NCBI GenBank assembly: GCA_051011415.1
Contig: JBPCTY010000047.1
Location: forward strand, 17,946 to 81,945
Direction: 5' to 3'
Length of the DNA stretch: 64,000 bases
Origin: Acidimicrobiia bacterium
GTDB taxonomy: Bacteria > Actinomycetota > Acidimicrobiia > Spongiisociales > UBA5794
Shown here: piece after piece, positions 2,238 through 64,000 of the stretch
How the letters are laid out: the number at the start of each line of letters is the position of its first letter
How positions within the stretch are numbered: the first letter of the stretch is position 1
Program-made: the position numbers and the translations under genes
Notes under the pieces: model-generated
The model's database searches: none
Told to the model about the DNA's origin: nothing
Seen by the model: the letters and a program-made list of their open reading frames with translations, nothing else

Positions 2238-3347
2238 ATGTCTGACGATTCGCAACAGCCTCCCGCATCGTTTGGAACGGCGCCAAAGGGAAGACTCTCA
2301 GCGAAAGATCGCAAACGGTCGATCATCCTCGTCGTTGTCGGACTCGTCATCGCCGGATTCATCTTCCTCGTCATCCTGCCTGAGGTCATCGACTACGAGG
2401 TCGTGTGGGAAACCATCAAGGCCCTTTCGCTGGCTCAACTGTTGATCCTGATCGCAGCGGGCTTGATCTATTACATACCCGAGGGCTGGCTGTACGCGGC
2501 GGTCATGCCAGGGATGTCGTTGTGGCAGGGGATAAAGGCGTGGGTTGCCTCGACAGGTGTGGGTACGACTGTGCCTGCCGTCGACCTCGTCGCCAGGTTT
2601 GGCATGTATCGGAGCTGGGGACACTCAATCGACGCATCGATGCGTGGTATCTTCCTCTCCGGGGCCTTTGACTGGGTCGTAAAATTCTCGCTGCCAGTCA
2701 TCGCCGTCATTGTGCTTGCCATCGGTGGAGTCGAGGGCCTCGAATTCTTGACCCTGATTGCGGTGATCGCAGGCGCGTTGCTGGTCCTGTGCGTCGGTGT
2801 ACTCGTCGGGCTGGTGCGGTCTGAGCGGTTCACGCATTGGGTTGCGGCCCGCGTTCAGAAGCTTGCGGACTGGGCCCTGGCGAAGCTCCGCCGCAACTCA
2901 ATGGTGGGGCTGTCAGACCGTGTGGTCTTCTTCCGCAATGACAGCGTGGATATTGCCCGAACCCGAGGTGTGTGGGCGTTCGTCGCATCGATTCTTGGGA
3001 AGCTGTGGCAGTACGTGATGCTCGTCATGGCGCTTCGTATGGTTGGGCTGGACGACAGCATTCTCTCGTTGCTTGAGATCTTCGTGGTGTGGGCGATCGT
3101 GTTGCTCATCACGATGATCCCGATCACGCCTGGCGGTATCGGGATCGCCGAGCTGTTCTACATCGGCCTCTTCACCCAGATCGCCGGAGAGGAGTACTCA
3201 AGCATCATTGGAGCCGGAGTGATGCTGTACCGGCTGATCCAGTGGGCGATGCCGATACCGATTGGATGGGCGGTCTTCCTCCGCTGGAAGCGCAAGGTCG
3301 ACCGAGGGGATCTCCCGGATCCGTTCAGTCTTTCGACTTCCGGCTAA
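2238..3347 (+). CDS. UPF0104 / lysylphosphatidylglycerol-synthase-TM-like (flippase-like) integral membrane protein
   Basis: 369-aa ORF that is polytopic and hydrophobic, with the ITPGGIGIAELFYIGLF motif typical of the family. It is divergent from a paralogous domain in the 1-2175 gene. Confidence 0.85.
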   Translation: MSDDSQQPPASFGTAPKGRLSAKDRKRSIILVVVGLVIAGFIFLVILPEVIDYEVVWETIKALSLAQLLILIAAGLIYYIPEGWLYAAVMPGMSLWQGIKAWVASTGVGTTVPAVDLVARFGMYRSWGHSIDASMRGIFLSGAFDWVVKFSLPVIAVIVLAIGGVEGLEFLTLIAVIAGALLVLCVGVLVGLVRSERFTHWVAARVQKLADWALAKLRRNSMVGLSDRVVFFRNDSVDIARTRGVWAFVASILGKLWQYVMLVMALRMVGLDDSILSLLEIFVVWAIVLLITMIPITPGGIGIAELFYIGLFTQIAGEEYSSIIGAGVMLYRLIQWAMPIPIGWAVFLRWKRKVDRGDLPDPFSLSTSG

Positions 3348-4527
3348 GAGACGGACGCCACTTGGAACCGCTCGAGTCTGCATCGCCGGGTCGAGCCTCG
3401 TGCTTGTCGTACTCGAACTCGTAGACCACGTCGTTGTGCTGGACGAAGTTGCCGACAAACGCAGTGATGAGGGCGGCGACTGGAAGCGCGACAAATGCGC
3501 CGATCGGTCCACCGATGGCTCCTCCAGCTAGGGCAGCTCCAAACGCGACGGCCCCGTTGAGTGTCATGGTGTCGGAGGAGATCTTCGGACTCAGCCAATA
3601 GTTCTCGATCTGCTGATACGCAATGGCATACCCCAGAACGATCAGGGCACCGACCCAGCCCGAGACAACCAGCGTGACCAGGATCGGCACAGCCGAACCG
3701 AGATACGTGCCGATCGCGGGAATGAATGCTGCAACAAAGCCGCCAAAGAGGGCAAGTGCCACTGAGGCTCCAACCGGAACGCCCACCAACACCATGGTGA
3801 AGAAGAAGCCCGTTGCGTTGATCATCATCAGGATGAATCGTGAGTAGAAGTAGCCGCCTGTTTGGACAATGGCCTGATCCCAGGTCCAGCCAACCCTTGC
3901 CTGCTCGTCCTCGTCGAGCAGGCTCAACACTGTTCGCTGGAAGCGTGGTGCATCTGCGGTGAAGTAGAACGTGAACATAGCGATCGTCGCCATGTCGAAG
4001 ATGAGGCCGATGCCAGACGTGGCGATCCCAAGGATGTTGCCCGCAGCACCCTGCAGCCACGCCAGGATCTCGTCTTCGATATCGGTCGCCACATCGCCGT
4101 CGAAGCCGCCCTCAGGAATCTCGAATCCAAACGTTTCATTCAGCCACGTTCCAAAGCCCTGAATCCACTCAGACCCGCTCTCGCCGATGGCGCCTGCCAA
4201 AGCGGCAATCGCTGGAATGAGCACCAGGACCAGCACGATGAAGCCGATCATGCCTGCGAGATAGATGACCCCGACCGCTGATCCGCGTTTCCAGTCCCAG
4301 CGGTGCACGATCCGCATGACCAGCGGTTGCAGAGCGAGGCTCAGGAAGAAGGAAAAGGCGACCAGAGCGATCAAGTGACGTGCCTGACCCATCATCCATA
4401 GCGTTGCGAGTGTGATGAGCACCGCACCGATGATCTTCCAGATCGCATCCCCGCTGATCGTGACCTGAACGTTCCGACGGTCCTCCGACTCGGTGTCGGG
4501 CGGGGGCGGTGTCGCTGAATCGCTCAT
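3325..4527 (-). CDS. AI-2E family transporter (PerM/UPF0118)
   Basis: Track ORF 3325-4707 trimmed to internal ATG 4527 (MSDSATPPP...), because the upstream 60 codons are Ser/Arg-rich and run into the divergent regulator gene. Family motif YQQIENYWLSPKI and about 8 TM segments. Confidence 0.85.
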   Translation of the reverse strand: MSDSATPPPPDTESEDRRNVQVTISGDAIWKIIGAVLITLATLWMMGQARHLIALVAFSFFLSLALQPLVMRIVHRWDWKRGSAVGVIYLAGMIGFIVLVLVLIPAIAALAGAIGESGSEWIQGFGTWLNETFGFEIPEGGFDGDVATDIEDEILAWLQGAAGNILGIATSGIGLIFDMATIAMFTFYFTADAPRFQRTVLSLLDEDEQARVGWTWDQAIVQTGGYFYSRFILMMINATGFFFTMVLVGVPVGASVALALFGGFVAAFIPAIGTYLGSAVPILVTLVVSGWVGALIVLGYAIAYQQIENYWLSPKISSDTMTLNGAVAFGAALAGGAIGGPIGAFVALPVAALITAFVGNFVQHNDVVYEFEYDKHEARPGDADSSGSKWRPSLSRKSKD

Positions 4528-43861: not shown

Positions 43862-44878
43862 CTAGCGAATCTCGACGCCGCGCTCGCCCTCTGCGATGTG
43901 ACCTATGACTCCTGCGGGAACATCGCTCGTTTCGAAAGCCCGAAGCGTTGCATCGACGTCCTCTTCGGCGACCACACATACAAATCCGATGCCCATGTTG
44001 AACGTGCGATACATGTCACCCGCCGGCACCTGCCCTACGTGCTGGAGCACCTTGAACACATGCGGAATCTCCCACTTCGCACGCTCGACCACAGCTCTCG
44101 AGCCTTCAGGGAGGACCCGGATGACGTTGCCAGGGAGTCCACCTCCGGTGATGTGTGCGAGCCCGTGCGGCTTGACCCTCGCAAGCATGTTGACGATCGC
44201 TGGCGAGTAGACGACAGAAGGATTGAGCAGTACGTGGGCCGTTGGCGTGTCGGTGTCGGGGAACGTCCCGTCGAGCGGCAAGCCTTTTGCGACGATGGCA
44301 CGCACAAGTGAGAACCCATTGGATCGGAGGTTTGGGCTGTTGACGCCGATGATGATGTCGCCAGGGGTCACCAGTTCTGGATCAACCTCCTCGCCCATTT
44401 CGACGATTCCCAGGGCGGTCGCGGCGATGTCGAATTGTTGGGGAGCCATGACCCCGGGATGTTCTGCAGTTTCTCCTCCGAGCAACGCTATGTCGGACTC
44501 AGAGCATGCTTCGGTGATCGATTCGACGAGCGTCTCCACCATGTCAACATCGAGCTTGCCGACCGCTATGTAGTCGGACATAGCGATTGGCTGCGCTCCG
44601 GCGGCAGCAAGGTCATCGGCGACCATGGCCACGAGGTCATACCCGAGACCCTCGAGGAGTCCTGCTTGGCGTGCAAGATCTGCTTTTGTCCCGACACCGT
44701 CGGTTGACAACATGAGAACCGGTTGTTCGTATCCGACCGGGATCTGAAGACCCGCAGCGAAGCCGCCGAAACCGCCGACGACTTCGTCGGTCCAGGTCGA
44801 CGTGACTCTCCAACCGATACGATCGATCAGCTCATCCGCTGCGCTGAGGTTGACGCCCGCGCTTTCGTAACTGGTCAT
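43862..44878 (-). CDS. purM: Phosphoribosylformylglycinamidine cyclo-ligase (AIR synthetase)
   Basis: YESAGVNLSAADELIDRI..., GGFGGF and the AIRS N- and C-terminal domain pattern. Confidence 0.95.
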   Translation of the reverse strand: MTSYESAGVNLSAADELIDRIGWRVTSTWTDEVVGGFGGFAAGLQIPVGYEQPVLMLSTDGVGTKADLARQAGLLEGLGYDLVAMVADDLAAAGAQPIAMSDYIAVGKLDVDMVETLVESITEACSESDIALLGGETAEHPGVMAPQQFDIAATALGIVEMGEEVDPELVTPGDIIIGVNSPNLRSNGFSLVRAIVAKGLPLDGTFPDTDTPTAHVLLNPSVVYSPAIVNMLARVKPHGLAHITGGGLPGNVIRVLPEGSRAVVERAKWEIPHVFKVLQHVGQVPAGDMYRTFNMGIGFVCVVAEEDVDATLRAFETSDVPAGVIGHIAEGERGVEIR

Positions 44879-51804: not shown

Positions 51805-52706
51805 CGGCCACCGGAAGTCTCGAGGTAGGAGTCGAACGATGCTCCGGTGAGGAGTTCGTACGCCTGGATGTACCGATCTGATGTTTCCTGGACCACCGAT
51901 GCAGGCATGGTCGGCGCTGGCGGTGTCTTGTCCCAGTCATCGACCGTCTCCAGCCAATCTCGAACGGGTTGCTTGTCGAAGGACGGGACGGGTGAACCTT
52001 CGCTCCACCGGTCAGCTGGCCAGTAGCGGGAGCTGTCGGGGGTGAGCACCTCATCGATGAGGATGATCTCGTCTCCGAACATTCCGAACTCGAATTTCGT
52101 GTCGGCGAGGATGATTCCTCGGTCTGCGGCATAGTCCCTGCCTGCCCCGTAGATCGCCATCGATCGGCGTTTGAGTTCGTCGTAGAGGTCATTACCAACG
52201 AAGTCCCTCGCCTCGGCTTCGGTGAGATTCTCATCGTGCCCACTCTCTGCCTTGGTCGCCGGTGTGAAGATCGGTTCTGGGAGCTTGCTTGCCATTTGCA
52301 GGCCGTCGGGAAGATGCTCAGTGGTTGGCCCTCCGCCGGACTCGTACTCCTTCCAGCTCGATCCGTACAGGTATCCACGGATCACGCACTCCATCGGGAT
52401 GACCTCGGCGGCGTGCACGAGCATCGCACTTCCGGCATATGACGCTTGTTGCTCTGGCGTGAGGAAGTCCATCGAGCTGGTGTCGGTGGAGATGAGGTGG
52501 TGCGGGGTATCGAGAAGGTCAAACCAGTGCACCGAGACTCCGGTCAGCACTTGTCCCTTGTGGGGAATGTCCTCGTCCAGGACTACGTCAAACGCCGAGA
52601 TGCGATCGGAAGCAACGATGAGCAACCGCTCGTCGTCGATTCGAAAGATCTCGCGGACCTTGCCCGATCCAATGTGTTCCAGCGCCACGGCGGAGATGGT
52701 AATCAC
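51801..52706 (-). CDS. purC: Phosphoribosylaminoimidazole-succinocarboxamide synthase
   Basis: The conserved region starts at ...HIGSGKVREIF...SDRISAFD. Start set to GTG 52706 (GGGAGA upstream), with 52688 also possible. The track extension to 53174 is antisense to the globin gene. Confidence 0.9.
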   Translation of the reverse strand: MITISAVALEHIGSGKVREIFRIDDERLLIVASDRISAFDVVLDEDIPHKGQVLTGVSVHWFDLLDTPHHLISTDTSSMDFLTPEQQASYAGSAMLVHAAEVIPMECVIRGYLYGSSWKEYESGGGPTTEHLPDGLQMASKLPEPIFTPATKAESGHDENLTEAEARDFVGNDLYDELKRRSMAIYGAGRDYAADRGIILADTKFEFGMFGDEIILIDEVLTPDSSRYWPADRWSEGSPVPSFDKQPVRDWLETVDDWDKTPPAPTMPASVVQETSDRYIQAYELLTGASFDSYLETSGGR

Positions 52707-52790
52707 AGCTGGTTGGTCTCCCAGCCAACGATGGCAGTCAGCTGCGTGGTGCTGTGCCGTCACGATCCGGCAGCTTTCTAGCCTCGGCAT

Positions 52791-53189
52791 ATGACCACCA
52801 CAACGAACCCTTGGGGAGATGCACCAACGCCGTTTGAGGCGATGGGCGGAGAACCAGTTATCAGAGCGGTGGTCGACCGCTTCTACGACCTGATTGATGC
52901 CGATGCGCCGACACTGCGGGCAATGCTCCCCGCCGACGACTCGGTGTCTCGCGACAAGCTCTACGCCTATCTCGTCGAGTGGACCGGTGGGCCTGCTTTG
53001 TATTCGCCAGAACGCGGCCATCCACGAATGCGGATGCGTCACGCACCATTCGCGATCGGCGAACAAGAAGTGATCCAGTGGTTGGCCTGCATGGAGCAGT
53101 CGCTTGACGACAACGACGTCACCGGTGACGTTCGTGCGTTTCTCGATGAGAAACTGGACGCGCTCGCACACCACATGCGCAACACCTGA
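52791..53189 (+). CDS. Group II truncated hemoglobin (2-on-2 globin)
   Basis: 132 aa, FEAMGGEPVIRAVVDRFYDLI...YLVEWTGGPALY...HPRMRMRHAPFAIG (proximal His context). Confidence 0.85.
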   Translation: MTTTTNPWGDAPTPFEAMGGEPVIRAVVDRFYDLIDADAPTLRAMLPADDSVSRDKLYAYLVEWTGGPALYSPERGHPRMRMRHAPFAIGEQEVIQWLACMEQSLDDNDVTGDVRAFLDEKLDALAHHMRNT

Positions 53190-53242
53190 GGCGTTCTGAT
53201 CTGGCTGTCGGTTGGAGCGACAGACCTACCGGTGAACGGCTG

Positions 53243-54538
53243 TCACAGTGTGGACGATTCGAGCCTGTCGAACACCACATCAGCGTTTGCGAGAAAGCGC
53301 TGAGTTCCGAAGCACTCGGAGAGTGTTGCCTCGTCGAGCGGAACATCAGTGTCGGAGGAAAGCCGCTCTTGCAATGTTCCACCCTCGTCCCAAGCCTGCA
53401 TGGCGTTCCGCTGCACGATCCGGTAGGCCTCGTCGCGGGTCATTCCCTCGTCGATGAGGGCGAGCAGGACTGCCTGGCTGTACACAAGGCCTCTCGTGGA
53501 TGCCAGGTTTGCCGCCATGCGGTCCTCGTCGACGACCAAGTTGTCGATCAGTTTGGTGAGGCGCCGCAAGGCATAGTGAAGAATCGATGTCGCATCAGGC
53601 AGTGCGACCCGCTCAACAGACGAGTGCGAGATGTCTCTCTCGTGCCACAGGGCGACGTTCTCAAGACCGGCTGACGCATAGCCTCTGAGCAATCGAGCAA
53701 CGCCGGTTAGGTTTTCCGATGCGATCGGATTCCGCTTGTGCGGCATTGCCGAAGATCCCTTTTGTCCCTTGCCAAACGACTCTCGCGCTTCTCCGACCTC
53801 GGACCGCTGAAGATGCCTGATCTCGGTGGCAAAGCGTTCAACCGTGGATCCGATGAGTGCCAGCACCGAGAGGAAGTGTGCATGCCGATCCCTCGCAACA
53901 ACCTGTGTTGAGGCTGGCTCGATATTGAGACCGAGGCGGTCGCACACGAACGACTCCACCGAGGCGGGCGTGTGGGCGTAGGTGCCGACGGCACCGGAGA
54001 TCGCACCGACCGCAACACCCGTGACAGCGTCGGTGAGCCGCTCGTAGTCACGTTGCACTTCGAAGGTCCATGATGCAAGCTTGAGCCCGAATGAGGTCGG
54101 TTCAGCCCAGATGCCATGGGTGCGACCGATCATCGCGGTGTCCCTGAATTCGAAGGCTCGCCGCTTTGTGACGTCGTGGAGCTTGGCGACTGCATCAAGA
54201 AGTGTCGTGCCCGCTTCCATCAGGACGACTCCTGTTGCGGTGTCGAGCACATCCGACGATGTGAGCCCGAAGTGGATCCACTCGCCGCCCTCGCCTACGG
54301 ATTCGGACAGCAGGTCAACAAACGCAGCGACGTCGTGGTTCGTCCTGCTTTCCCGTTCCTTCCAACTGACCACATCGACCTCGGGTGCCGATCGCGCATT
54401 GGTGGCTGCCGCCTCGGGGGCGACTCCTTCGGCAACCCATGCCTCCACGACGAGAGTCTCAACTTCCTTCCAGACGGCGAGCTTGTGCTCCTCCGACCAA
54501 AGGTCATTCATCTCGGACGTGGAGTAGCGCTCGATCAT
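53243..54538 (-). CDS. purB: Adenylosuccinate lyase
   Basis: The N-terminus [17 protein letters not shown] and the signature GSSAMPHKRNP. Confidence 0.96.
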   Translation of the reverse strand: MIERYSTSEMNDLWSEEHKLAVWKEVETLVVEAWVAEGVAPEAAATNARSAPEVDVVSWKERESRTNHDVAAFVDLLSESVGEGGEWIHFGLTSSDVLDTATGVVLMEAGTTLLDAVAKLHDVTKRRAFEFRDTAMIGRTHGIWAEPTSFGLKLASWTFEVQRDYERLTDAVTGVAVGAISGAVGTYAHTPASVESFVCDRLGLNIEPASTQVVARDRHAHFLSVLALIGSTVERFATEIRHLQRSEVGEARESFGKGQKGSSAMPHKRNPIASENLTGVARLLRGYASAGLENVALWHERDISHSSVERVALPDATSILHYALRRLTKLIDNLVVDEDRMAANLASTRGLVYSQAVLLALIDEGMTRDEAYRIVQRNAMQAWDEGGTLQERLSSDTDVPLDEATLSECFGTQRFLANADVVFDRLESSTL

Positions 54539-54981
54539 GCCTTGAGGCTCTCCCTGTAGTCGGCCAGTTTCGCCGCAACGCTGTCGTCAGTCACGGAGAG
54601 AATCGATGCTGCGAGGTATGCAGCGTTCGCAGAACTATCAATCGCAACGGTTGCCACAGGTATGCCAGTCGGCATCTGCACCGTCGCATACAGTGCATCA
54701 ACGCCGCCGAGACCTCCAGCTGCGATCGGCACGCCGATGATGGGCAGCGTCGAATGTGCCGCAGCGGCGCCGGCCAGGTGTGCAGCCTTGCCCGCTCCAC
54801 AGATGATGACCCCGTAGCCGTTTGTCCGTGCCGAGGACACAAACGCGGCAACCTTCTCGGGTGTGCGATGCGCAGACATCACATGAACTTCGTGGTCGAT
54901 ACCGAAGTCGGACAGCACATCCGCACACGGCTGCATCTTTGACATGTCCTTCTCGGACCCCATAAGGATTGCGACCTTCAC
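54535..54981 (-). CDS. purE: N5-carboxyaminoimidazole ribonucleotide mutase (class I PurE)
   Basis: GSEKD...[10 protein letters not shown] (the SAHR motif of class I) and AGKAAHLAG. Confidence 0.93.
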
Positions 54982-54996
54982 CTGTTTGCTCCTATC

Positions 54997-57674
<2,678 letters not shown>

Positions 57675-57761
57675 TTAGGGTGCACATCGCCCGGTCTCCC
57701 GATCGGGCTTGGGCGGCTACAGCCGTCCCCAACTTGGAAACAATGGAGGAGGGGTTACAGC

Positions 57762-58883
57762 ATGCTGAAGAGACTTGCTGTGCTCTTTGCAGTTCTCGCA
57801 CTGGTCGCCGCAGCTTGTGGTGGCTCAGACGAGGGCGGAGAGACAACTACCACAGTCGCTGAAGGCGGCGACGGTGGCGGTGAAGAAACTGGACAAGAAG
57901 GCGGAAGCACCCTTGAGGCTGTACAGGCTCGTGGGAAGCTCATCTGTGGCGTTTCCGGCACCGCTGTCGGATTCTCAGAGACTCAGCCAGACGGCTCGGC
58001 AACCGGCTTTGATGCCGATTACTGCCGTGCAGTTGCAGCTGCTGTTCTCGGAGACTCAACAGCCGTCGAGTTCCGTCCTTTGACGGCAGCCGAGCGGTTC
58101 GAGGCTCTCAAGAACAACGAGATCGACGTGCTGATTCGTAACACGACCTGGACTCAGAGCCGTGACACGGACATCGGTATGCAGTTCGTCGCGACGACGT
58201 ACTTCGATGGCCAGCAGATCATGGGTGATCCGGCGACCTTGCCAGGACTCACTGCATCGAGCGGCTTCGAAGCTATCGACGGCGCAACCGTTTGCACGAA
58301 CGCCGGTACGACGACTGAGAAGAACATCACCGAGGGTGCAGCTGTTGCTGGCGTGACCATCACGCTCGAAACGGTTGAGACATTCCCTGAGGCAATGGAG
58401 AAGTTCAAGGCTGGTACGTGTGACCTCGTCACGACGGACGGTTCTGGTCTCTACGGAAACCGTTCAGCTGAGGCGCAAGCCGGAACTGAAGGCGCTGAGA
58501 ACTGGGTGATCTTCCCAGAAGCACCTATCTCCAAGGAGCCACTCGGCCCCGTCGTTCGTCAGAACGATGACCAGTGGATGGACGTCATCCAGTGGACCGT
58601 GTTCGCCACATTCATCGCTGATGAAAACGGTGTCACGTCGGCCAACGTTGGCGACATGATGGATGCAACACCTGAGCTGAGCCGTTTGTTCGGTGGCGAG
58701 GGCGAGCTCCAGACCGCAATGGGACTATCTGCTGATGCGTTCTTGAACTCCATCAAGCAGGTCGGCTCGTACGGTGAAATCTACGAGACCAACCTCACGG
58801 GCCCACTCGGGCTCGCACGTGAGGGCAGCTACAACATGCAGTGGTTCGACGGTGGCCTTATCTACGCACCGCCGGCTCGCTGA
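57762..58883 (+). CDS. aapJ: General L-amino-acid ABC transporter substrate-binding lipoprotein
   Basis: Trimmed to ATG 57762, preceded by GGAGGAGGGG. Lipobox LVAAAC. AapJ/BztA-like core (GKLICGVS...GFDADYCRAVAAA). Confidence 0.88.
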   Translation: MLKRLAVLFAVLALVAAACGGSDEGGETTTTVAEGGDGGGEETGQEGGSTLEAVQARGKLICGVSGTAVGFSETQPDGSATGFDADYCRAVAAAVLGDSTAVEFRPLTAAERFEALKNNEIDVLIRNTTWTQSRDTDIGMQFVATTYFDGQQIMGDPATLPGLTASSGFEAIDGATVCTNAGTTTEKNITEGAAVAGVTITLETVETFPEAMEKFKAGTCDLVTTDGSGLYGNRSAEAQAGTEGAENWVIFPEAPISKEPLGPVVRQNDDQWMDVIQWTVFATFIADENGVTSANVGDMMDATPELSRLFGGEGELQTAMGLSADAFLNSIKQVGSYGEIYETNLTGPLGLAREGSYNMQWFDGGLIYAPPAR

Positions 58884-58908
58884 TCTAGCTAGCTGACAAG
58901 AGATACGG

Positions 58909-58945
58909 AAAGGGACCGCCTTCGGGCGGTCCCTTTTCTTTTTGG
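58909..58945 (+). terminator. Intrinsic terminator after aapJ
   Basis: AAGGGACCGCC-TTCG-GGCGGTCCCTT is followed by TTCTTTTT. Confidence 0.8.
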
Positions 58946-58946
58946 C

Positions 58947-59031
58947 TCTTTGCTCGCATCGGTCGCTTCGCTCCCTTGCTCGCAGCTTTGAGCTTTTGGC
59001 TTTGAGCTTTTAGCTCTTGGCTTGCGGCTTG
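58947..59031. repeat. Left arm of a long imperfect inverted repeat
   Basis: Base-by-base pairing with 59559-59476 gives perfect blocks of 11, 25, 13 and 13 bp separated by single mismatches, with a few indels near the inner end. The arm contains a tandem GCTTTGAGCTTTT(G/A) unit. Confidence 0.85.
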
Positions 59032-59032
59032 G

Positions 59033-59452
59033 TCAACCGGGGAGGTCTCGGTGGATGCGTTGGATTGTTGTGTTGATCATCCGTCGGACTTCGTTGACCT
59101 CGTTCTGCAGTCTGTTCATTGCTGCTGGCTCTCCGACTCCGACGTCTCTTGCGAGGATCGCCTGGGTCTCGACCTCACACGCTGAGCCATAGGCGATGCG
59201 AAGGAACCGCAGGAACTCCTTGTCTGATCCCCGACCGCTGCCTTCAGCGATGTTGCTCGGCACCGATACCGCCGCTCGGCGAATCTGGGATCTGAGGCCG
59301 TAGAGCTCACTGTCTGGGAACGGATCTGTTGCGTCGTATGCGATCCGGGCCAGGACCATGGATCGCTGCCAGATTCGGAGATTGTGGTGGTTCTGCACAC
59401 CCGACAAGTACCGCACCAGCCCGGAAGGTTCAATGCCTCCGCACTGATCCAC
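59033..59452 (-). CDS. Four-helix-bundle protein ('23S rRNA intervening-sequence protein' family, Avd-like)
   Basis: ...LRIWQRSMVLARIAYDATDPFPDSELYGLRSQIRRAAVSVPSNIAEGSGRGSDKEFLRFLRIAYGSACEVETQ matches the family consensus. The true start is probably internal (GTG 59416 or 59398). Confidence 0.85.
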   Translation of the reverse strand: MDQCGGIEPSGLVRYLSGVQNHHNLRIWQRSMVLARIAYDATDPFPDSELYGLRSQIRRAAVSVPSNIAEGSGRGSDKEFLRFLRIAYGSACEVETQAILARDVGVGEPAAMNRLQNEVNEVRRMINTTIQRIHRDLPG

Positions 59453-59475
59453 AAGAGGCGACTGGACTGCAGGCT

Positions 59476-59559
59476 CAAGCTCAAGGCCAAAGCCAAAAGC
59501 TCAAAGCTAAAAGCTCAAAGCGGCGAGCAAGGGAGCGAAGCGACCGAAGCGAGCAAAGA
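59476..59559. repeat. Right arm of the long imperfect inverted repeat
   Basis: Reverse complement of 58947-59031, as described for the left arm. Confidence 0.85.
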
Positions 59560-59667
59560 TCTGTCCTCAACATTCCTCCGGCGAATTCCAAGCAAAGGCA
59601 CGTGGCGCATGCCTAGTGTGCCGCAGGAAGCGACAGGCCCACCTCGGTGTGGTCTCTTGGAAGGCAC

Positions 59668-61248
59668 ATGACCGTCGAGGTCCGAGAGCATCAGAAGACC
59701 CCGCTGTGGCGGAATGGGATGGTCCTCAAGTGGACGGCCCAAATCGTCGTGCTTCTTGCGGTCATCGGTGTATTCGTGACCCTGGTTTCGCAAGCTGCCG
59801 CAAACTTCTCTGATTCCGACGTTTCCTTCGGATGGGAGTGGCTGTCCGATCCAACCGGTGTGCAGATTCGAGAAGGCATTGATACAAGCCCTGACAGCGG
59901 TGTCCGTGCCCTCACCGTGGGAATCATCAACACCCTGCGGGTGGCGATATCGGGAATCATTGTTGCGACGCTTCTCGGAACACTGATTGGTATTGCCAGA
60001 CTGTCCAGCAACTGGATCGTCAACAAGATCGCAACCGTCTACATCGAGACGATCCGCAACATCCCACTTCTCGTCCAGATCTTCTTCTGGTCGGCGATCG
60101 CAATCAGCCTTCCCGCACTTACCGCGGACGATGTGGGCGAGTATTGGTTCAAAGCTTCCAACAAGGGCTTTGGGCTTGCCTGGATCTTTCCTGACGGTGG
60201 CTTCTGGCCATGGCTGATATTCGTGATTGTCGGCTTCTTCGTCGGGAGGATGGTCTCCAAGCGTCGGAAGAAGTATCAGGAGGACACCGGCAATCCGGGC
60301 AATGGCGGGCGCTACATGACCTTGATCATCGTGGCATTCGGCATTCTCGGCTGGTTTGCCTGGCCGATTCTTCAATGGATGGAACCGGTTCTGAATGCAA
60401 TCGGGGACTTCATTGGCGGTCTGCCACCGATACTCGTACCGATCATCCTTGCGGCGATTTCCCTGCTCACGGCCGTGTGGTGGATTCGGAACTTCTTCGA
60501 GTCGCGTCGGACGCCTGCAGGCTTTGGAAAGATGACGGACGACGACTGGTTCCGAGTGATCTTCGCCGGCGTCAGCGGGATCGTTCTTGCACTGCTTGCG
60601 TTTGTTGTCGGAGGCTTCGAGATCAAGACCGTCTCAGGCGAGGTATTGACGACTGCTGAGCTGGTTCTTTCCGGCATCAACAACTTCTTCGGCTGGCTTG
60701 CAGCAAGCTTCAACGCCGATCTGTACATGCAAACGATTGAGGGCGTGCGATCCGGCGGACCACTCGTGTTCGAGAAGCCGCAGGTGATTCTCAAGGGTGC
60801 GGCGCAGATTCCACAGTTCGGCGACACAGGAATGGTCATCACCATTCCCTTCTTTGCGATCTGGACCGGCGTGACGCTGTATACCGCATCCTTCATCGCA
60901 GAGATCGTTCGTGGCGGCATCCTCGCAGTGCCGAAGGGGCAGACCGAAGCCTCCATGGCACTCGGCTTGAAGCGTGGTCAGTATCTCCGTCAGATCATCC
61001 TGCCTCAGGCTTTCCGGATCATCCTCCCACCGCTCGGCAACCAGTATCTCAACCTGGCAAAGAACACGTCACTAGGTCTTGCTGTCGCATTCGCAGACAT
61101 CGTTGCGGTCGGCACAACCATCATCAACCAGACCGGCCAGTCGCTGCCTGTCGTCGTGATCTGGATGGCGTTCTTCCTCACGCTGAGCCTGTCCATCTCA
61201 GCAATCGTGAACTACTACAACCGCAAGTTGATGCTGGTGGAGCGTTGA
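59668..61248 (+). CDS. aapQ: General L-amino-acid ABC transporter permease, unusually long
   Basis: ATG 59668 is preceded by GGAAGG. The C-terminal conserved permease core includes EAS-loop-like ...TEASMALGLKRGQYLRQIILPQAFRIILPPLGNQYLNL. Confidence 0.88.
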   Translation: MTVEVREHQKTPLWRNGMVLKWTAQIVVLLAVIGVFVTLVSQAAANFSDSDVSFGWEWLSDPTGVQIREGIDTSPDSGVRALTVGIINTLRVAISGIIVATLLGTLIGIARLSSNWIVNKIATVYIETIRNIPLLVQIFFWSAIAISLPALTADDVGEYWFKASNKGFGLAWIFPDGGFWPWLIFVIVGFFVGRMVSKRRKKYQEDTGNPGNGGRYMTLIIVAFGILGWFAWPILQWMEPVLNAIGDFIGGLPPILVPIILAAISLLTAVWWIRNFFESRRTPAGFGKMTDDDWFRVIFAGVSGIVLALLAFVVGGFEIKTVSGEVLTTAELVLSGINNFFGWLAASFNADLYMQTIEGVRSGGPLVFEKPQVILKGAAQIPQFGDTGMVITIPFFAIWTGVTLYTASFIAEIVRGGILAVPKGQTEASMALGLKRGQYLRQIILPQAFRIILPPLGNQYLNLAKNTSLGLAVAFADIVAVGTTIINQTGQSLPVVVIWMAFFLTLSLSISAIVNYYNRKLMLVER

Positions 61249-61249
61249 T

Positions 61250-63091
61250 ATGGCAGATATGACCACCGCACCTGAGCTGGAGTTCGCGCCAGAGCCACCA
61301 CCTACCGGGCCTCGGATCTGGTTGCGCGACAACCTGTTCTCCACGCCTGCCAGCAGCGTGATGAGCGTGTTGTCGATCGCGCTGGTTGTGTTTGCATTGC
61401 GCGGCTTCCTGATATTCATTTTCGATCCGCTTCGTCGATGGGACGCCGTCACATTCAATATGCGACTCCTGATGGTGCAGGCCTTTCCACAGGATCAGCT
61501 GTGGCGAGTGTGGCTGACCGTCGCGATCGTCTTCACGCTTCTGGCGGCCAGCCTCGCCGTGTGGAAGATTGGTGGGAAGCTCGAGCCACGGGTGCTCGGC
61601 AAGTCGTTGATGGGCGCAGGTGGCTTGATCGCGTTGTGCGGGTTGCTTGGCCCATTCTCGCCCGGTGCCAGAGCTGGCTGGTTGATCGTCGGGGGCGTTC
61701 TGCTGATCGCCGGCTATGCGCTGCGAAAGTTCACGGGAGACAGGGCCAAGGAAGAGATCATTCCGCTGATGGCCGTCATCGGTATCGGCATGGTGATCAT
61801 CATTGCGGTGATCTGGACGATTGAGGTCCCGGTTCCGGCAAAGATCGTGGACGGCGAAGTAATCACCGATGGTGCCGAGGCAGCGGGCGTCGTCGGCGAG
61901 CAGGTCAAGGTGATGCGGCCGGTCGCCGAATCGACCACGATGCCGTGGACGATCATCTTTGTCCTGACGGCCATCGTGTGGGGATTCTTCAAGCTCCTGT
62001 TCGGGAATAGGGACAACAACGAGGTCATCAAAAAGACGCTCACAGTTATGTGGCTTTTGGCCTTCCCTCTCCTGGTGTTGGTGCTGCTGAGGAACCCTGT
62101 GTGGGAAGGCGACATTCTGGTCGATCACGCTATTGGGTTCCTGATAGCCGGTGTGCTTGGGTCAGTGATTCTTTGGTACATCTCAAAGCCAGGTGTTGGA
62201 GAGGTCGGTCGTGTTATCGGCGCATTCCTCCTGATCGGTGCGTTCGCCTCGCTCCTCGTACCAATGCCGTTCATATGGCGCTTCCTGCTGTTTGCCCTGG
62301 CACTGTTTGCGCTTGCGGCCCCGAGCTTCGGCGGCGAGGGTTGGAAGGGCCTGATCGGCGCATGGTTGATCACTGTCGGTCTGATCACCTTCTTTGCTTT
62401 CACCACAAACACAGACTCCGGCATCGACGTACCCGGAAGCTTCTTCCTGGGTGGGCTGTCGCTCACGATCGTGCTGGCATTTACGTCCATCGTGTTGTCT
62501 TTCCCTATCGGGGTAGTCCTTGCGCTCGGACGGACCTCGACCATGCCGATCTTCAGGCTGCTTTCGACGGCCTACATCGAACTCGTCCGTGGTGTGCCAC
62601 TTATCACCTGGCTGCTGATCTCCTTCCTGATGCTGCCTGTTGCCCTCCCCGAGGGCATTGAGATCGGTGGCGTCATGCGAGCAATCGGTGCCATGACGTT
62701 CTTCTCTGCTGCCTATCTCGCAGAGAACGTTCGCGGTGGTCTCCAGTCGATCCCTGGTGGTCAGCGAGAGGCCGCTCAAGCGCTCGGTATGTCGACCATT
62801 CAGATGATCGTGTTCATCACGCTGCCCCAGGCGTTGCGTGCGGTCATTCCTGCTCTCGTCGGTCAGGTCATCGCATTGTTCAAGGACACGTCGCTGGTTA
62901 CGATCGTCGGACTATTCGACTTCCTCCACATTGCCAGAGCCGTGATCCCAGCACAGAGCCAGCCGTTCAGCTTCCTTGGCTCGATCAAGGAGACCTTGAT
63001 CTTTGCTGCGATCGTCTACTGGATGTTCACGTTCACGTTCTCACGCATCAGCCTGCGCCTCGAGAAGAAGCTCGGCGTCGGTGAGCGATAG
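61250..63091 (+). CDS. aapM: General L-amino-acid ABC transporter permease with a long polytopic N-terminal extension
   Basis: The N-terminus ...[14 protein letters not shown] resembles AapM. The C-terminal core is [34 protein letters not shown]. 613 aa. Confidence 0.88.
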
Positions 63092-63113
63092 ACAGGATCC
63101 GCAAGGGAGCACT

Positions 63114-63884
63114 ATGGAAAACGAAACTACAGGTGCCACAGGAAGGACGCTCGGCGATCCGATCGTGGAAACCGAGGACGTCAAGAAGTGGTTCGGTGAC
63201 TTCCAGGCACTCAAGGGTGTCACCGCGACCGTTCGCGAGCGTGAAGTGGTCGTCATCATTGGACCTTCAGGTTCAGGTAAGTCGACGTACATTCGCTGCA
63301 TCAATCGTCTTGAAGCCCATCAAGAGGGCACGATCATCGTCGATGGGACCGAACTGACGAATGACATCAAGAACATCGAGAAGATCCGTTCCGAGGTGGG
63401 AATGGTCTTCCAGCAGTTCAACCTGTTCCCACATCTCACCGTGCTCGACAACATCACGCTTGCCCCGCAATGGGTGCGCAAGCAGCCGAAGGACGAATCT
63501 GAGGAGTACGCCATGGAGCTCCTCGAACGCGTCGGGATTCCTGAGCAGGCGGACAAGTACCCAGGCCAGCTGTCCGGTGGGCAGCAGCAGCGTGTCGCTA
63601 TCGCTCGCTCACTCGCGATGAAGCCACGAATCATGCTGTTCGACGAGCCGACCTCAGCACTCGACCCTGAGATGATCAAGGAAGTGCTTGACGTCATGAA
63701 GGAGCTCGCCCTCGGTGGTATGACGATGATGGTTGTCACCCACGAGATGGGCTTTGCTCGTGAGGTTGCTGACCGAGTGATGTTCTTTGACTACGGGACA
63801 ATTGTCGAGGAAGGCACGCCTGAGCACTTCTTCACGAACCCGCAGCACGACCGCACGAAGCTCTTCCTGTCGCAGATCCTCTGA
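63114..63884 (+). CDS. aapP: Amino-acid ABC transporter ATP-binding protein
   Basis: Trimmed to ATG 63114, preceded by AAGGGAG. Walker [10 protein letters not shown], signature [13 protein letters not shown], Walker [12 protein letters not shown]. Confidence 0.94.
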
Positions 63885-64000
63885 TCTCGCTCAGGGAATG
63901 AGGCGTTCCGCTTGGTAGCTGCGCATCAGCGCGTTCGGCTCGTGGCCGGGTGTTGAGCATGTCTTCGGAGGATCTCGGAGATCTTGCCAACTACCACACA

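Follow-up and report, generated by a model that had tools for sequence, protein, structure and literature searches.

Why does a gene of the kind known from intervening sequences (IVSs) of 23S rRNA, framed by long inverted repeats, sit between two genes of an aap-type transporter? The question is raised by a stretch of Acidimicrobiia DNA of 64,000 nucleotides (nt), hereafter called the window. In it, a cassette with two mutually complementary ends, or arms, occupies the gap between an aapJ-like solute-binding protein gene and an aapQ-like permease gene, and the arms enclose an antisense open reading frame (ORF) of the four-helix-bundle (4HB) family PF05635. Units of this type are already known from ribosomal DNA (rDNA); what is new here is an IVS unit outside rDNA. 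To our knowledge, the very large PF05635 family, for which structures have been solved, has no known function beyond diversity-generating retroelements (DGRs), and its members have so far been read as ribosomal proteins, Cas-associated proteins, or IVS relics. We propose that the locus exemplifies a widespread selfish or insertable cassette, in which a PF05635 4HB gene of about 120 amino acids (aa) lies between inverted heptamer arrays; a unit of the same kind residing in 23S rDNA goes by the name of ORF-containing IVS. We put the probability of this reading at roughly 0.6. The general link between PF05635 genes and inverted heptamers is a more interesting result than the single locus.

An intact cassette outside ribosomal DNA

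The original prediction had delimited the two arms and listed perfect blocks of 11, 25, 13, and 13 nt within them, and gapped alignment reproduces both the coordinates (Table 1) and the blocks exactly. The arms, 85 and 84 nt long, are reverse complements of each other. Their ungapped core spans 78 nt at 91% complementarity (58947-59024 and 59482-59559; spacing, 457 nt). When the upstream flank is aligned to the reverse complement of the downstream flank, which defines our arm score, the local-alignment score is 123, compared with 18.8 for dinucleotide shuffles (z = 45).

Each arm combines a nonperiodic outer part with an inner array of tandem heptamers. The outer 37 nt of the left arm (58947-58983) show no 7-nt periodicity, and the inner 48 nt (58984-59031) consist of AGCTTTG/AGCTTTT units with a lag-7 self-match of 0.76. 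Similarly, the inner 47 nt of the right arm (59476-59522) consist of GCTCAAA/GCTAAAA units (lag-7 self-match, 0.72), followed by 37 nonperiodic nt (59523-59559). Tandem Repeats Finder (TRF) also reports period 7 at 58984-59015 and 59473-59521, and these two arms are the only heptamer arrays in the 64-kb window. A single nucleotide separates the end of the left arm from the stop codon of the 4HB gene.

A long stem had been predicted for transcripts of either strand, and folding agrees. The stem closes on plus-strand RNA with a minimum free energy of -348.5 kcal/mol (z = -12.4) and on minus-strand RNA with one of -304 kcal/mol (z = -9.1), and the duplex of the two arms alone accounts for -145 and -142 kcal/mol, respectively. 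The enclosed gene matches PF05635 at 5e-37 (126.8 bits; cut-off, 33.8) and TIGR02436 at 1.6e-36 (124.8 bits; cut-off, 24), which bears out its earlier assignment as an antisense 23S-IVS-type gene between the arms. An Rfam scan returned nothing above threshold and no match to an rRNA family, and the insert sits between protein-coding genes. One Rfam row, STnc70 at 58785-58943 (E = 0.78), covers the 3' end of aapJ and its terminator and was taken as a chance match. The intact IVS-type cassette outside rDNA is real. The heptamer build of its arms, and the generality of that build in the PF05635 family, were absent from the original prediction.

Inverted heptamer arrays around PF05635 genes

A scan of metagenome contigs with the 4HB alignment yielded 80 unrelated loci, and the statistics in this section cover these together with the loci collected earlier (numbers with the prefix L identify loci where needed). 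The controls were 281 positions shifted by 1.2 to 2.4 kb. Arms, defined by an inverted-repeat score of at least 28, accompany 74% of the 82 scorable PF05635 ORFs but only 0.4% of the controls (Mann-Whitney p = 4e-30). They have a median length of 33 nt (range, 19 to 160), end a median of 35 nt 5' of the start codon, and begin again a median of 8 nt 3' of the stop codon. Flanking sequences match themselves best at a lag of 7 in 75 of 177 cases and at a lag of 8 in a further 29, and the mean best-window lag-7 self-match is 0.62 versus 0.42 in controls. These values come from a profile over all lags; a periodicity threshold of 85% self-match missed most degenerate arrays.

The arrays have a strong polarity: among 72 loci, the coding strand of the 5' arm is rich in G in 45 and rich in C in none. 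The 5' arm tends to be G-rich or purine-rich and the 3' arm C-rich on the coding strand, with the window and a few Acidimicrobiia copies as exceptions; the window is atypical in having a T-rich 5' arm without GC skew. Shine-Dalgarno-like GGAG/GAGG occurs in the final units of the 5' arm at some loci, L057 and L087 among them. Orientation relative to the surroundings is also uneven. In a rough survey of 57 cassettes, 39 were co-directional with both neighbors, and 6 lay antisense within a co-oriented pair, as in the window.

Moreover, the repeat unit belongs to the contig. In 10 of 27 cases, a cassette and a distant array on its contig have a repeated 7-mer in common, versus about 1% across contigs, and the unit shared along a contig is taken as genome-specific. 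Within a locus, the two arms show concerted evolution, and their units recur along the contig. ORF-less arrays and inverted pairs occur elsewhere on the same contigs. L014:3635-4000, L015:1133-1399, L021:5612-5710, and L097:1595-1694 hold ORF-less arrays or tight inverted pairs with spacers of 24 to 30 nt, which look like cassette remnants or nonautonomous versions. Array pairs about 1.1 to 1.2 kb apart in L066 and L083 were considered as cargo cassettes and rejected, as they are neighboring intergenic-spacer arrays around ordinary genes. In L034:1011-1703, a long open frame contains arrays of the ATCACCA/GTTACCA type, whose translation yields recurring ITNHQ-like peptides; the arrays may have been inserted in frame into a gene, or the frame may be spurious.

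Finished plasmids of cultured strains carry the same anatomy, with both arms present in three of six examples, and the arms are therefore not an assembly artifact. Clear inverted arms are found on plasmids of Azospirillum lipoferum 4B and Gemmatirosa. On plasmid pANA02 of Anabaena sp. 90 (L115, record 44265-44633), the 4HB gene, flanked by (AGGTGAC)n and (GTCACCT)n, separates cas6 from cas4 in a type I-D locus. Plasmids alpha and gamma of Nostoc PCC 7120 (L110 and L111) encode the same 4HB protein, WP_010994075.1, and have only a 3' array, (CCTCTGC)n; an insertion sequence (IS) transposase gene lies immediately upstream, at the place expected for the 5' arm. One Calothrix copy has no arms. Also, some metagenome and MAG (metagenome-assembled genome) contigs start or stop inside perfect heptamer or octamer arrays adjacent to 4HB genes (L001-L003, L013:1-71, L026:1-72, and L044:1-112), and the arrays seem to break short-read assemblies.

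One site in related genomes

Orthologous aapJ-aapQ gaps provide a view of the cassette's history. With the aapQ-like permease as a probe, 25 orthologous loci were fetched from Acidimicrobiia genomes; AapQ identity across them is 63 to 78% and AapJ identity 72 to 89%, apart from the most distant locus, L029, at 43% and 53%. The site is not uniformly occupied. Thirteen of the 25 gaps are empty and measure 114 to 222 nt. The 4HB gene is antisense to aapQ in the window and in L001-L003, L007, L008, L023, and L026, and it is in the sense orientation in L011 and L012, while L014 and L015 hold ORF-less heptamer arrays such as (CTGTGAA)n. There is, therefore, a presence/absence polymorphism at the orthologous site, and the suggestion that the unit is an insertable module gains support from gaps that are empty, occupied in either orientation, or left with remnants. 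As a discrete unit, the cassette has been gained, lost, and replaced at one site, where both orientations are found.

The heptamer unit itself varies by locus (e.g., GAGCTTT, GAGTCCC, TGAGTTG, and CAGCCGT), and the arms stay complementary within each locus. L012 (3221-3326 and 3816-3917) and L023 (2900-3110 and 3560-3950) have arms made of units of about 24 to 26 nt, each a small hairpin such as GAGATGCGGCTGTGCCGCATCGACA, and these arrays of mini-hairpins represent a second way in which arms around genes of this family are built. The content of the gap can vary as well. In L010, the gap (3197-4000) contains a gene for a DUF805 membrane protein (Pfam, 6e-24) between heptamer-like arrays (CGGATCT, GATCTCC, and GGACCGT), and the same contig has a 4HB cassette upstream of aapJ (about 2 kb off; arms at about 1470-1950) with the same heptamer type, xTCCGAx. 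It follows that arms can enclose other cargo. A separate observation concerns L011:8189-8483, where an ORF for a predicted membrane protein of 62 aa without a Pfam match lies between (CAGCCAT)n and (GCTGACG)n; the heptamer is that of the contig's 4HB cassette, and the contig ends in the second of these arrays.

A neighbor-joining tree of AapQ places the window together with four loci occupied in the antisense orientation (L026, L001, L008, and L007) and with L005 and the pair L006 and L027, which are empty. This grouping suggests either an old insertion followed by at least two losses or several independent gains. Among the window, L001, and L008, the proportion of synonymous differences (pS) is 0.57 to 0.68 for the 4HB gene and 0.56 to 0.63 for aapQ; the similarity of the two supports vertical descent, and the window cassette looks old and vertically inherited within its subclade. 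The picture is different for L012 and L023. Their AapQ proteins are 93% identical, whereas their 4HB genes are 65% identical and lie in opposite orientations, and pS is 0.78 (saturated) for the 4HB gene against 0.54 for aapQ and 0.32 for aapJ. Because the 4HB value exceeds that of the flanks, a simple inversion in situ was rejected in favor of replacement: the content of the cassette has been exchanged, not just flipped.

The four-helix-bundle protein

The longest frame of the 4HB gene runs from 59033 to 59452 on the minus strand. The homologues in a 20-sequence alignment start at MQ(D/N), which makes the GTG at 59398 the likely start. The nearest database protein, at 99% identity, comes from an Acidimicrobiia MAG, and the NCBI call for a near-identical MAG protein is 127 aa. 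The core motif S-(V/I)-P-S-N-I-A-E-G-x-G-R reads SVPSNIAEGSGR in the window protein, and its residues are invariant or nearly so across the alignment. Of 8000 scored candidates, all but 28 match at an E value of 1e-5 or below, and many homologues lie on contigs of only 0.5 to 1.5 kb.

An AlphaFold (AF2) model built with 20 homologues consists of four helices, with a mean confidence (pLDDT) of 94.6. Foldseek comparison gives Xcc0516 (2GSC) as the best match in the PDB (template modeling [TM] score, 0.87 to 0.95; 39% identity), and BT_0352 (2RLD; TM, 0.72 to 0.85) and the DGR accessory protein bAvd (4DWL; TM, 0.72 to 0.86) are also similar. A homopentameric ring has been described for 2GSC, and homologues of the window protein are homopentamers. 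The protein is under purifying selection, with a ratio of nonsynonymous to synonymous change (dN/dS) of 0.21 to 0.24 between the window gene and its orthologues and of 0.06 to 0.24 over all pairs tested.

Ten Acidimicrobiia cassettes have in common a motif of two hexamers 17 nt apart that lies 6 to 9 nt 5' of the start codon. This arrangement suggests that the gene has its own promoter inside the arms and would yield a leaderless mRNA; a putative promoter at this place means that the 4HB gene's own mRNA would carry only the 3' arm.

The transporter locus

The original prediction saw the cassette as an insertion inside a transporter operon. It does not lie within a continuous transcript: a strong intrinsic terminator precedes it, and a promoter-like leader that is conserved in relatives follows it (Table 1). 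The terminator hairpin follows aapJ in every relative, whether the gap is empty or occupied. Likewise, TGCA(A/G)A-17-TA(T/G)GGT followed by GCC is kept 5' of aapQ in most of the 25 loci, empty and occupied alike, and this block, judging by its conservation, probably serves as the promoter of aapQMP or as an element of its leader. Its distance to aapQ is about 50 nt in most of L005-L028. A scan for the sigma-70 consensus over 58700-59800 found no promoter, and the promoter-like motifs of both the 4HB gene and aapQMP are defined by cross-locus conservation only.

Table 1. Features of the cassette and the adjoining transporter genes (positions in the window)
Feature	Position	Strand	Basis
aapJ-like solute-binding protein gene	57762..58883	+	PF00497 SBP_bac_3, 1.4e-14
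aapJ intrinsic terminator	58907..58948 (stem and T-run, 58907-58938)	+	hairpin with 14-bp stem (9 GC pairs) and loop of 4, then T-run
Left arm (3' arm relative to 4HB gene)	58947..59031	.	repeat search, gapped alignment, TRF
4HB gene (PF05635/TIGR02436), 121 aa from GTG 59398	59033..59398	-	hidden Markov model, alignment, structure model
Promoter-like motif in arms	TTGAAC 59433-59428, 17 nt, TACTTG 59410-59405, 6 nt to GTG	-	inferred
Right arm (5' arm relative to 4HB gene)	59476..59559	.	repeat search, gapped alignment, TRF
aapQMP promoter-like leader	59591..59619	+	AGCAAA, 17 nt, TAGTGT (TAnnnT)
aapQ-like permease gene	59668..61248	+	PF00528 BPD_transp_1

Because the terminator and the leader are also present in relatives without a cassette, aapJ and aapQMP are separate units already, and a role for RNase III in uncoupling them, as had been proposed, is not needed. 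The site of the cassette is most likely a harmless slot between the aapJ terminator and the aapQMP leader and, as such, neutral for the transporter. In another Acidimicrobiia MAG (L004:3136-3636), a 4HB cassette with (GTTCACA)n arms lies 3' of the terminator of a gene for a Bmp-family binding protein and 5' of the ABC ATPase gene; this is the same type of slot in a different transporter.

Possible mechanism and alternative explanations

How might such a cassette persist and spread? At the level of DNA, the arms would be the active ends, each being an inverted copy of the other with similar arrays elsewhere in the genome. By way of the arms, homologous recombination or events stimulated by hairpins could then bring about insertion, exchange, inversion, or loss of the cassette with no need for a dedicated transposase. 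Such arm-mediated recombination fits the missing target-site duplication and transposase, the ORF-less remnants, and the replacement seen between L012 and L023. At the level of RNA, a transcript that crosses both arms would form a double-stranded stem of about 80 bp, which RNase III may cut as it cuts the Coxiella IVS in vitro, and removal of the stem would make insertion into rRNA and operons tolerable. Removal of this kind fits the co-directional bias of most cassettes. The pentameric, Avd-like protein would act on nucleic acid, probably on the arrays, as is expected by analogy with Avd.

Several observations weigh against our proposal. The 64-kb window contains no second copy of the arm or of the 4HB gene, and no transposase or recombinase was found nearby. 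There is no target-site duplication, with flanks reading ...TTTTTGGC before the left arm and TCTGTCC... after the right one; the empty sites are too diverged to define the insertion junction. The visibly lower GC content that had been ascribed to the cassette does not hold up either: the cassette has 58.1% GC and its ORF 59.5%, against 59.7% for the window, so that no discontinuity is seen, and the arms alone are lower, at 54%. Vertical inheritance within the window's subclade implies that any mobility operates on an evolutionary time scale. Transcripts spanning both arms may be rare at the window locus, given the strong aapJ terminator and the promoter-like motif inside the arms. Finally, mismatches in the arms of 72 loci (98 sense G-U, 131 antisense G-U, and 297 other) show no excess of sense-strand G-U pairs and hence no positive signature of selection on RNA. 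The G-U test speaks neither for nor against a role at the RNA level, since such a signal would be wiped out by gene conversion between the arms.

These points have to be set against what other explanations can account for. The cassette could be kept as a host regulatory device, in which RNase III acts on the stem and so uncouples aapJ from aapQMP. Either strand forms a long, stable stem, and cassettes recur just 3' of solute-binding protein genes, both at the aap site and in L004, but terminator and leader split the units in all relatives, the 13 with empty gaps included. The cassette is also absent, inverted, replaced, or decayed in close relatives, and the same type occurs in settings that have nothing in common with it, among them cas operons and genes for sugar-nucleotide metabolism, all of which makes a device of this sort quite improbable. 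A resident regulator deserves more attention, although we judge it unlikely. Here the 4HB pentamer would bind genome-specific arrays as operators or RNA targets and its own arrays for autoregulation. Purifying selection on the protein, the heptamer shared along the contig with ORF-less arrays and pairs elsewhere on it, and the polarity of the arms all suit such a regulator, as does an independent reading of inverted hepta- and octamer pairs in Geobacter as global-regulator sites (PMC2700814). It leaves unexplained, however, the presence and absence of the gene at one site, its replacement by a divergent paralogue, the several divergent paralogues per contig, and the occurrence inside rRNA genes and cas operons. 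The regulator and the insertable cassette are not mutually exclusive, and the protein may bind the arrays in either case.

An invertible switch, in which the arms flip the gene and turn 4HB expression or antisense transcription on and off, would make use of inverted repeats of 85 bp, which can recombine, and of the two orientations found at the same site. We consider it very improbable, since the sole close pair with opposite orientations is a replacement (4HB pS of 0.78 versus 0.32 to 0.54 for the flanks), no invertase gene is nearby, and orientation is biased (39 to 6) in the survey above. That the gene is an orphan avd from a degenerate DGR is scarcely credible, despite the similarity of the fold to bAvd and weak matches to PF22296 among homologues. 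The window protein passes the threshold for PF05635 and not that for bAvd, conserved transporter genes lie on both sides, and cassette-less relatives have the same synteny. In line with the original prediction, no DGR partner was found: the immediate neighbors are transporter genes, and no direct repeat of at least 40 nt occurs in 52000-64000, leaving no template/variable repeat pair within 12 kb; no model of reverse transcriptase (RT) was run over the remainder of the 64 kb. Chance repeats or misassembly might be suspected because several metagenome contigs (L001-L003, L013, L026, and L044) end inside heptamer arrays. This possibility is refuted by the z score of 45 for the window arms, by the frequency of arms in the family compared with controls, and by the same anatomy in assemblies made independently and in finished plasmids from cultured bacteria.

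Significance

PF05635 genes and heptanucleotide repeats belong together. This link is evidenced by the difference between 74% and 0.4% in the frequency of arms, by the unit shared along the contig, and by a site that is empty, occupied, flipped, or replaced in relatives. Two puzzles, namely, the function of the orphan PF05635 family and the cause of heptanucleotide repeats that have been reported for decades, one genome at a time, thereby become one testable system. The insertable cassette predicts that the protein recognizes its own arrays, that the cassette is exchanged through its arms, and that removal of the stem by RNase III permits residence in rRNA and operons. We also caution that 4HB genes should not be read as functional partners of host operons, for example, in cas loci. 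Moreover, the arrays explain recurrent contig breaks in metagenome assemblies.

A broader idea can be put forward only tentatively, and we think it possible rather than probable: PF05635 genes and genome-specific inverted heptamer arrays may form one large, hitherto unrecognized, transposase-less, foldback-like family of elements. ORF-bearing copies would be autonomous, ORF-less pairs would be nonautonomous or serve as landing pads, and the pentamer would be the array-specific factor that binds the arrays and mobilizes or protects them. The ORF-less class would then comprise cyanobacterial short tandemly repeated repetitive (STRR) sequences, GGGAATC pairs of Xanthomonas, paired sites of Geobacter, and insertions in RNA genes, those for rRNA included. 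If true, such a family would explain both the long-noted excess of heptanucleotide repeats in bacteria and what a very large family of orphan proteins does.

Comparison with known systems

Avd is a pentamer that binds nucleic acid and the RT of its DGR. The window protein has the same fold, with homopentameric homologues, but belongs to another Pfam model, shares only 12 to 16% identity with Avd, and has no RT neighbor and no template/variable repeats. Foldback transposons of eukaryotes have long terminal inverted repeats made of short tandem subrepeats, with arms of very variable length and many copies that lack an internal gene. They are mobilized by a transposase, and the likeness to the cassette is an architectural analogy that implies no homology. 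Repetitive extragenic palindromic (REP) sequences and bacterial interspersed mosaic elements (BIMEs) are palindromic repeats found just after the binding-protein gene in ABC transporter operons, for example, between malE and malF. Unlike the cassette, REPs are imperfect palindromes of 35 to 40 nt that are mobilized by REP-associated tyrosine transposases (RAYTs) and have neither an ORF nor heptamer arrays.

Heptanucleotide repeats are a closer parallel. Cyanobacterial STRR heptanucleotide repeats were reportedly described by Mazel in 1990. The window type of array has their properties of tandem 7-nt units, a unit shared along the contig, and an intergenic position, and 4HB genes on cyanobacterial plasmids carry STRR-like heptamer arrays. 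Heptamer repeats of the TAACTGA type are found in Beggiatoaceae (PMC4679880), and Geobacter metallireducens has 24 + 21 + 8 inverted pairs of three to five hepta- or octamers in intra-operon gaps, the pairs that were read as global-regulator sites (PMC2700814). Like the arms described here, the repeats of these three groups are genome-specific tandem 7- or 8-mers of three to five or more units in intergenic or intra-operon positions, often as inverted pairs. They have been described without an enclosed gene, and most copies are ORF-less, unlike the window cassette. In Xanthomonas, about 70 convergent inverted pairs of GGGAATC arrays per genome have been treated as G-quadruplex-forming repeats (PMC4692102, Rehm et al. 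2015), and one such GGGAATC array is located immediately 5' of xcc0516 on the same strand as the gene (PMC4692102 supplement). Xcc0516, the closest solved structure to the window protein, is thus encoded by a gene with a heptamer array at its 5' side. Rehm et al. draw no link between the repeats and the PF05635 gene, and the window heptamer has no G-runs, unlike GGGAATC.

For PF05635 genes with flanking inverted heptamer arrays outside rRNA, we found no published link in a search that was incomplete, and a prior description is possible. Eighteen 23S_rRNA_IVP genes in cas loci have been read as Cas-associated (PMC3936711); this published association of PF05635 with cas may reflect insertion of the cassette rather than function. 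In bacteria of the candidate phyla radiation (CPR), the family also occurs in insertions of 16S and 23S rRNA.

IVSs of Leptospira were reportedly treated by Ralph and McClelland in 1993. A detailed comparison can be made with the 23S IVS of Coxiella burnetii, which has a 28-bp terminal inverted-repeat stem and two to three tandem copies of GACAGAT upstream of an S23p (PF05635) ORF (PMC4990558). The copy number of GACAGAT differs among strains, RNase III cleaves the IVS in its stem in vitro, with ends mapped by RACE, and a mobile origin of ORF-containing IVSs has long been suspected (PMC4990558). The likeness of the window cassette to ORF-bearing 23S IVSs, which the original prediction had asserted, therefore holds: terminal inverted repeats close a stem around an ORF of the PF05635 family (about 120 aa), heptamers in tandem are adjacent to the ORF, and the total length is 430 to 610 nt. 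In contrast to an IVS, the window cassette lies outside rRNA genes, antisense to its neighbors, in the gap between a terminator and a putative promoter. Its arms measure 85 nt against 28 bp in Coxiella, and its ORF is intact and under purifying selection, whereas that of Coxiella is decaying. RNase III cleavage has been shown in vitro for the Coxiella IVS, and the stem of the window cassette, at about 80 bp, is a plausible substrate for the same enzyme.

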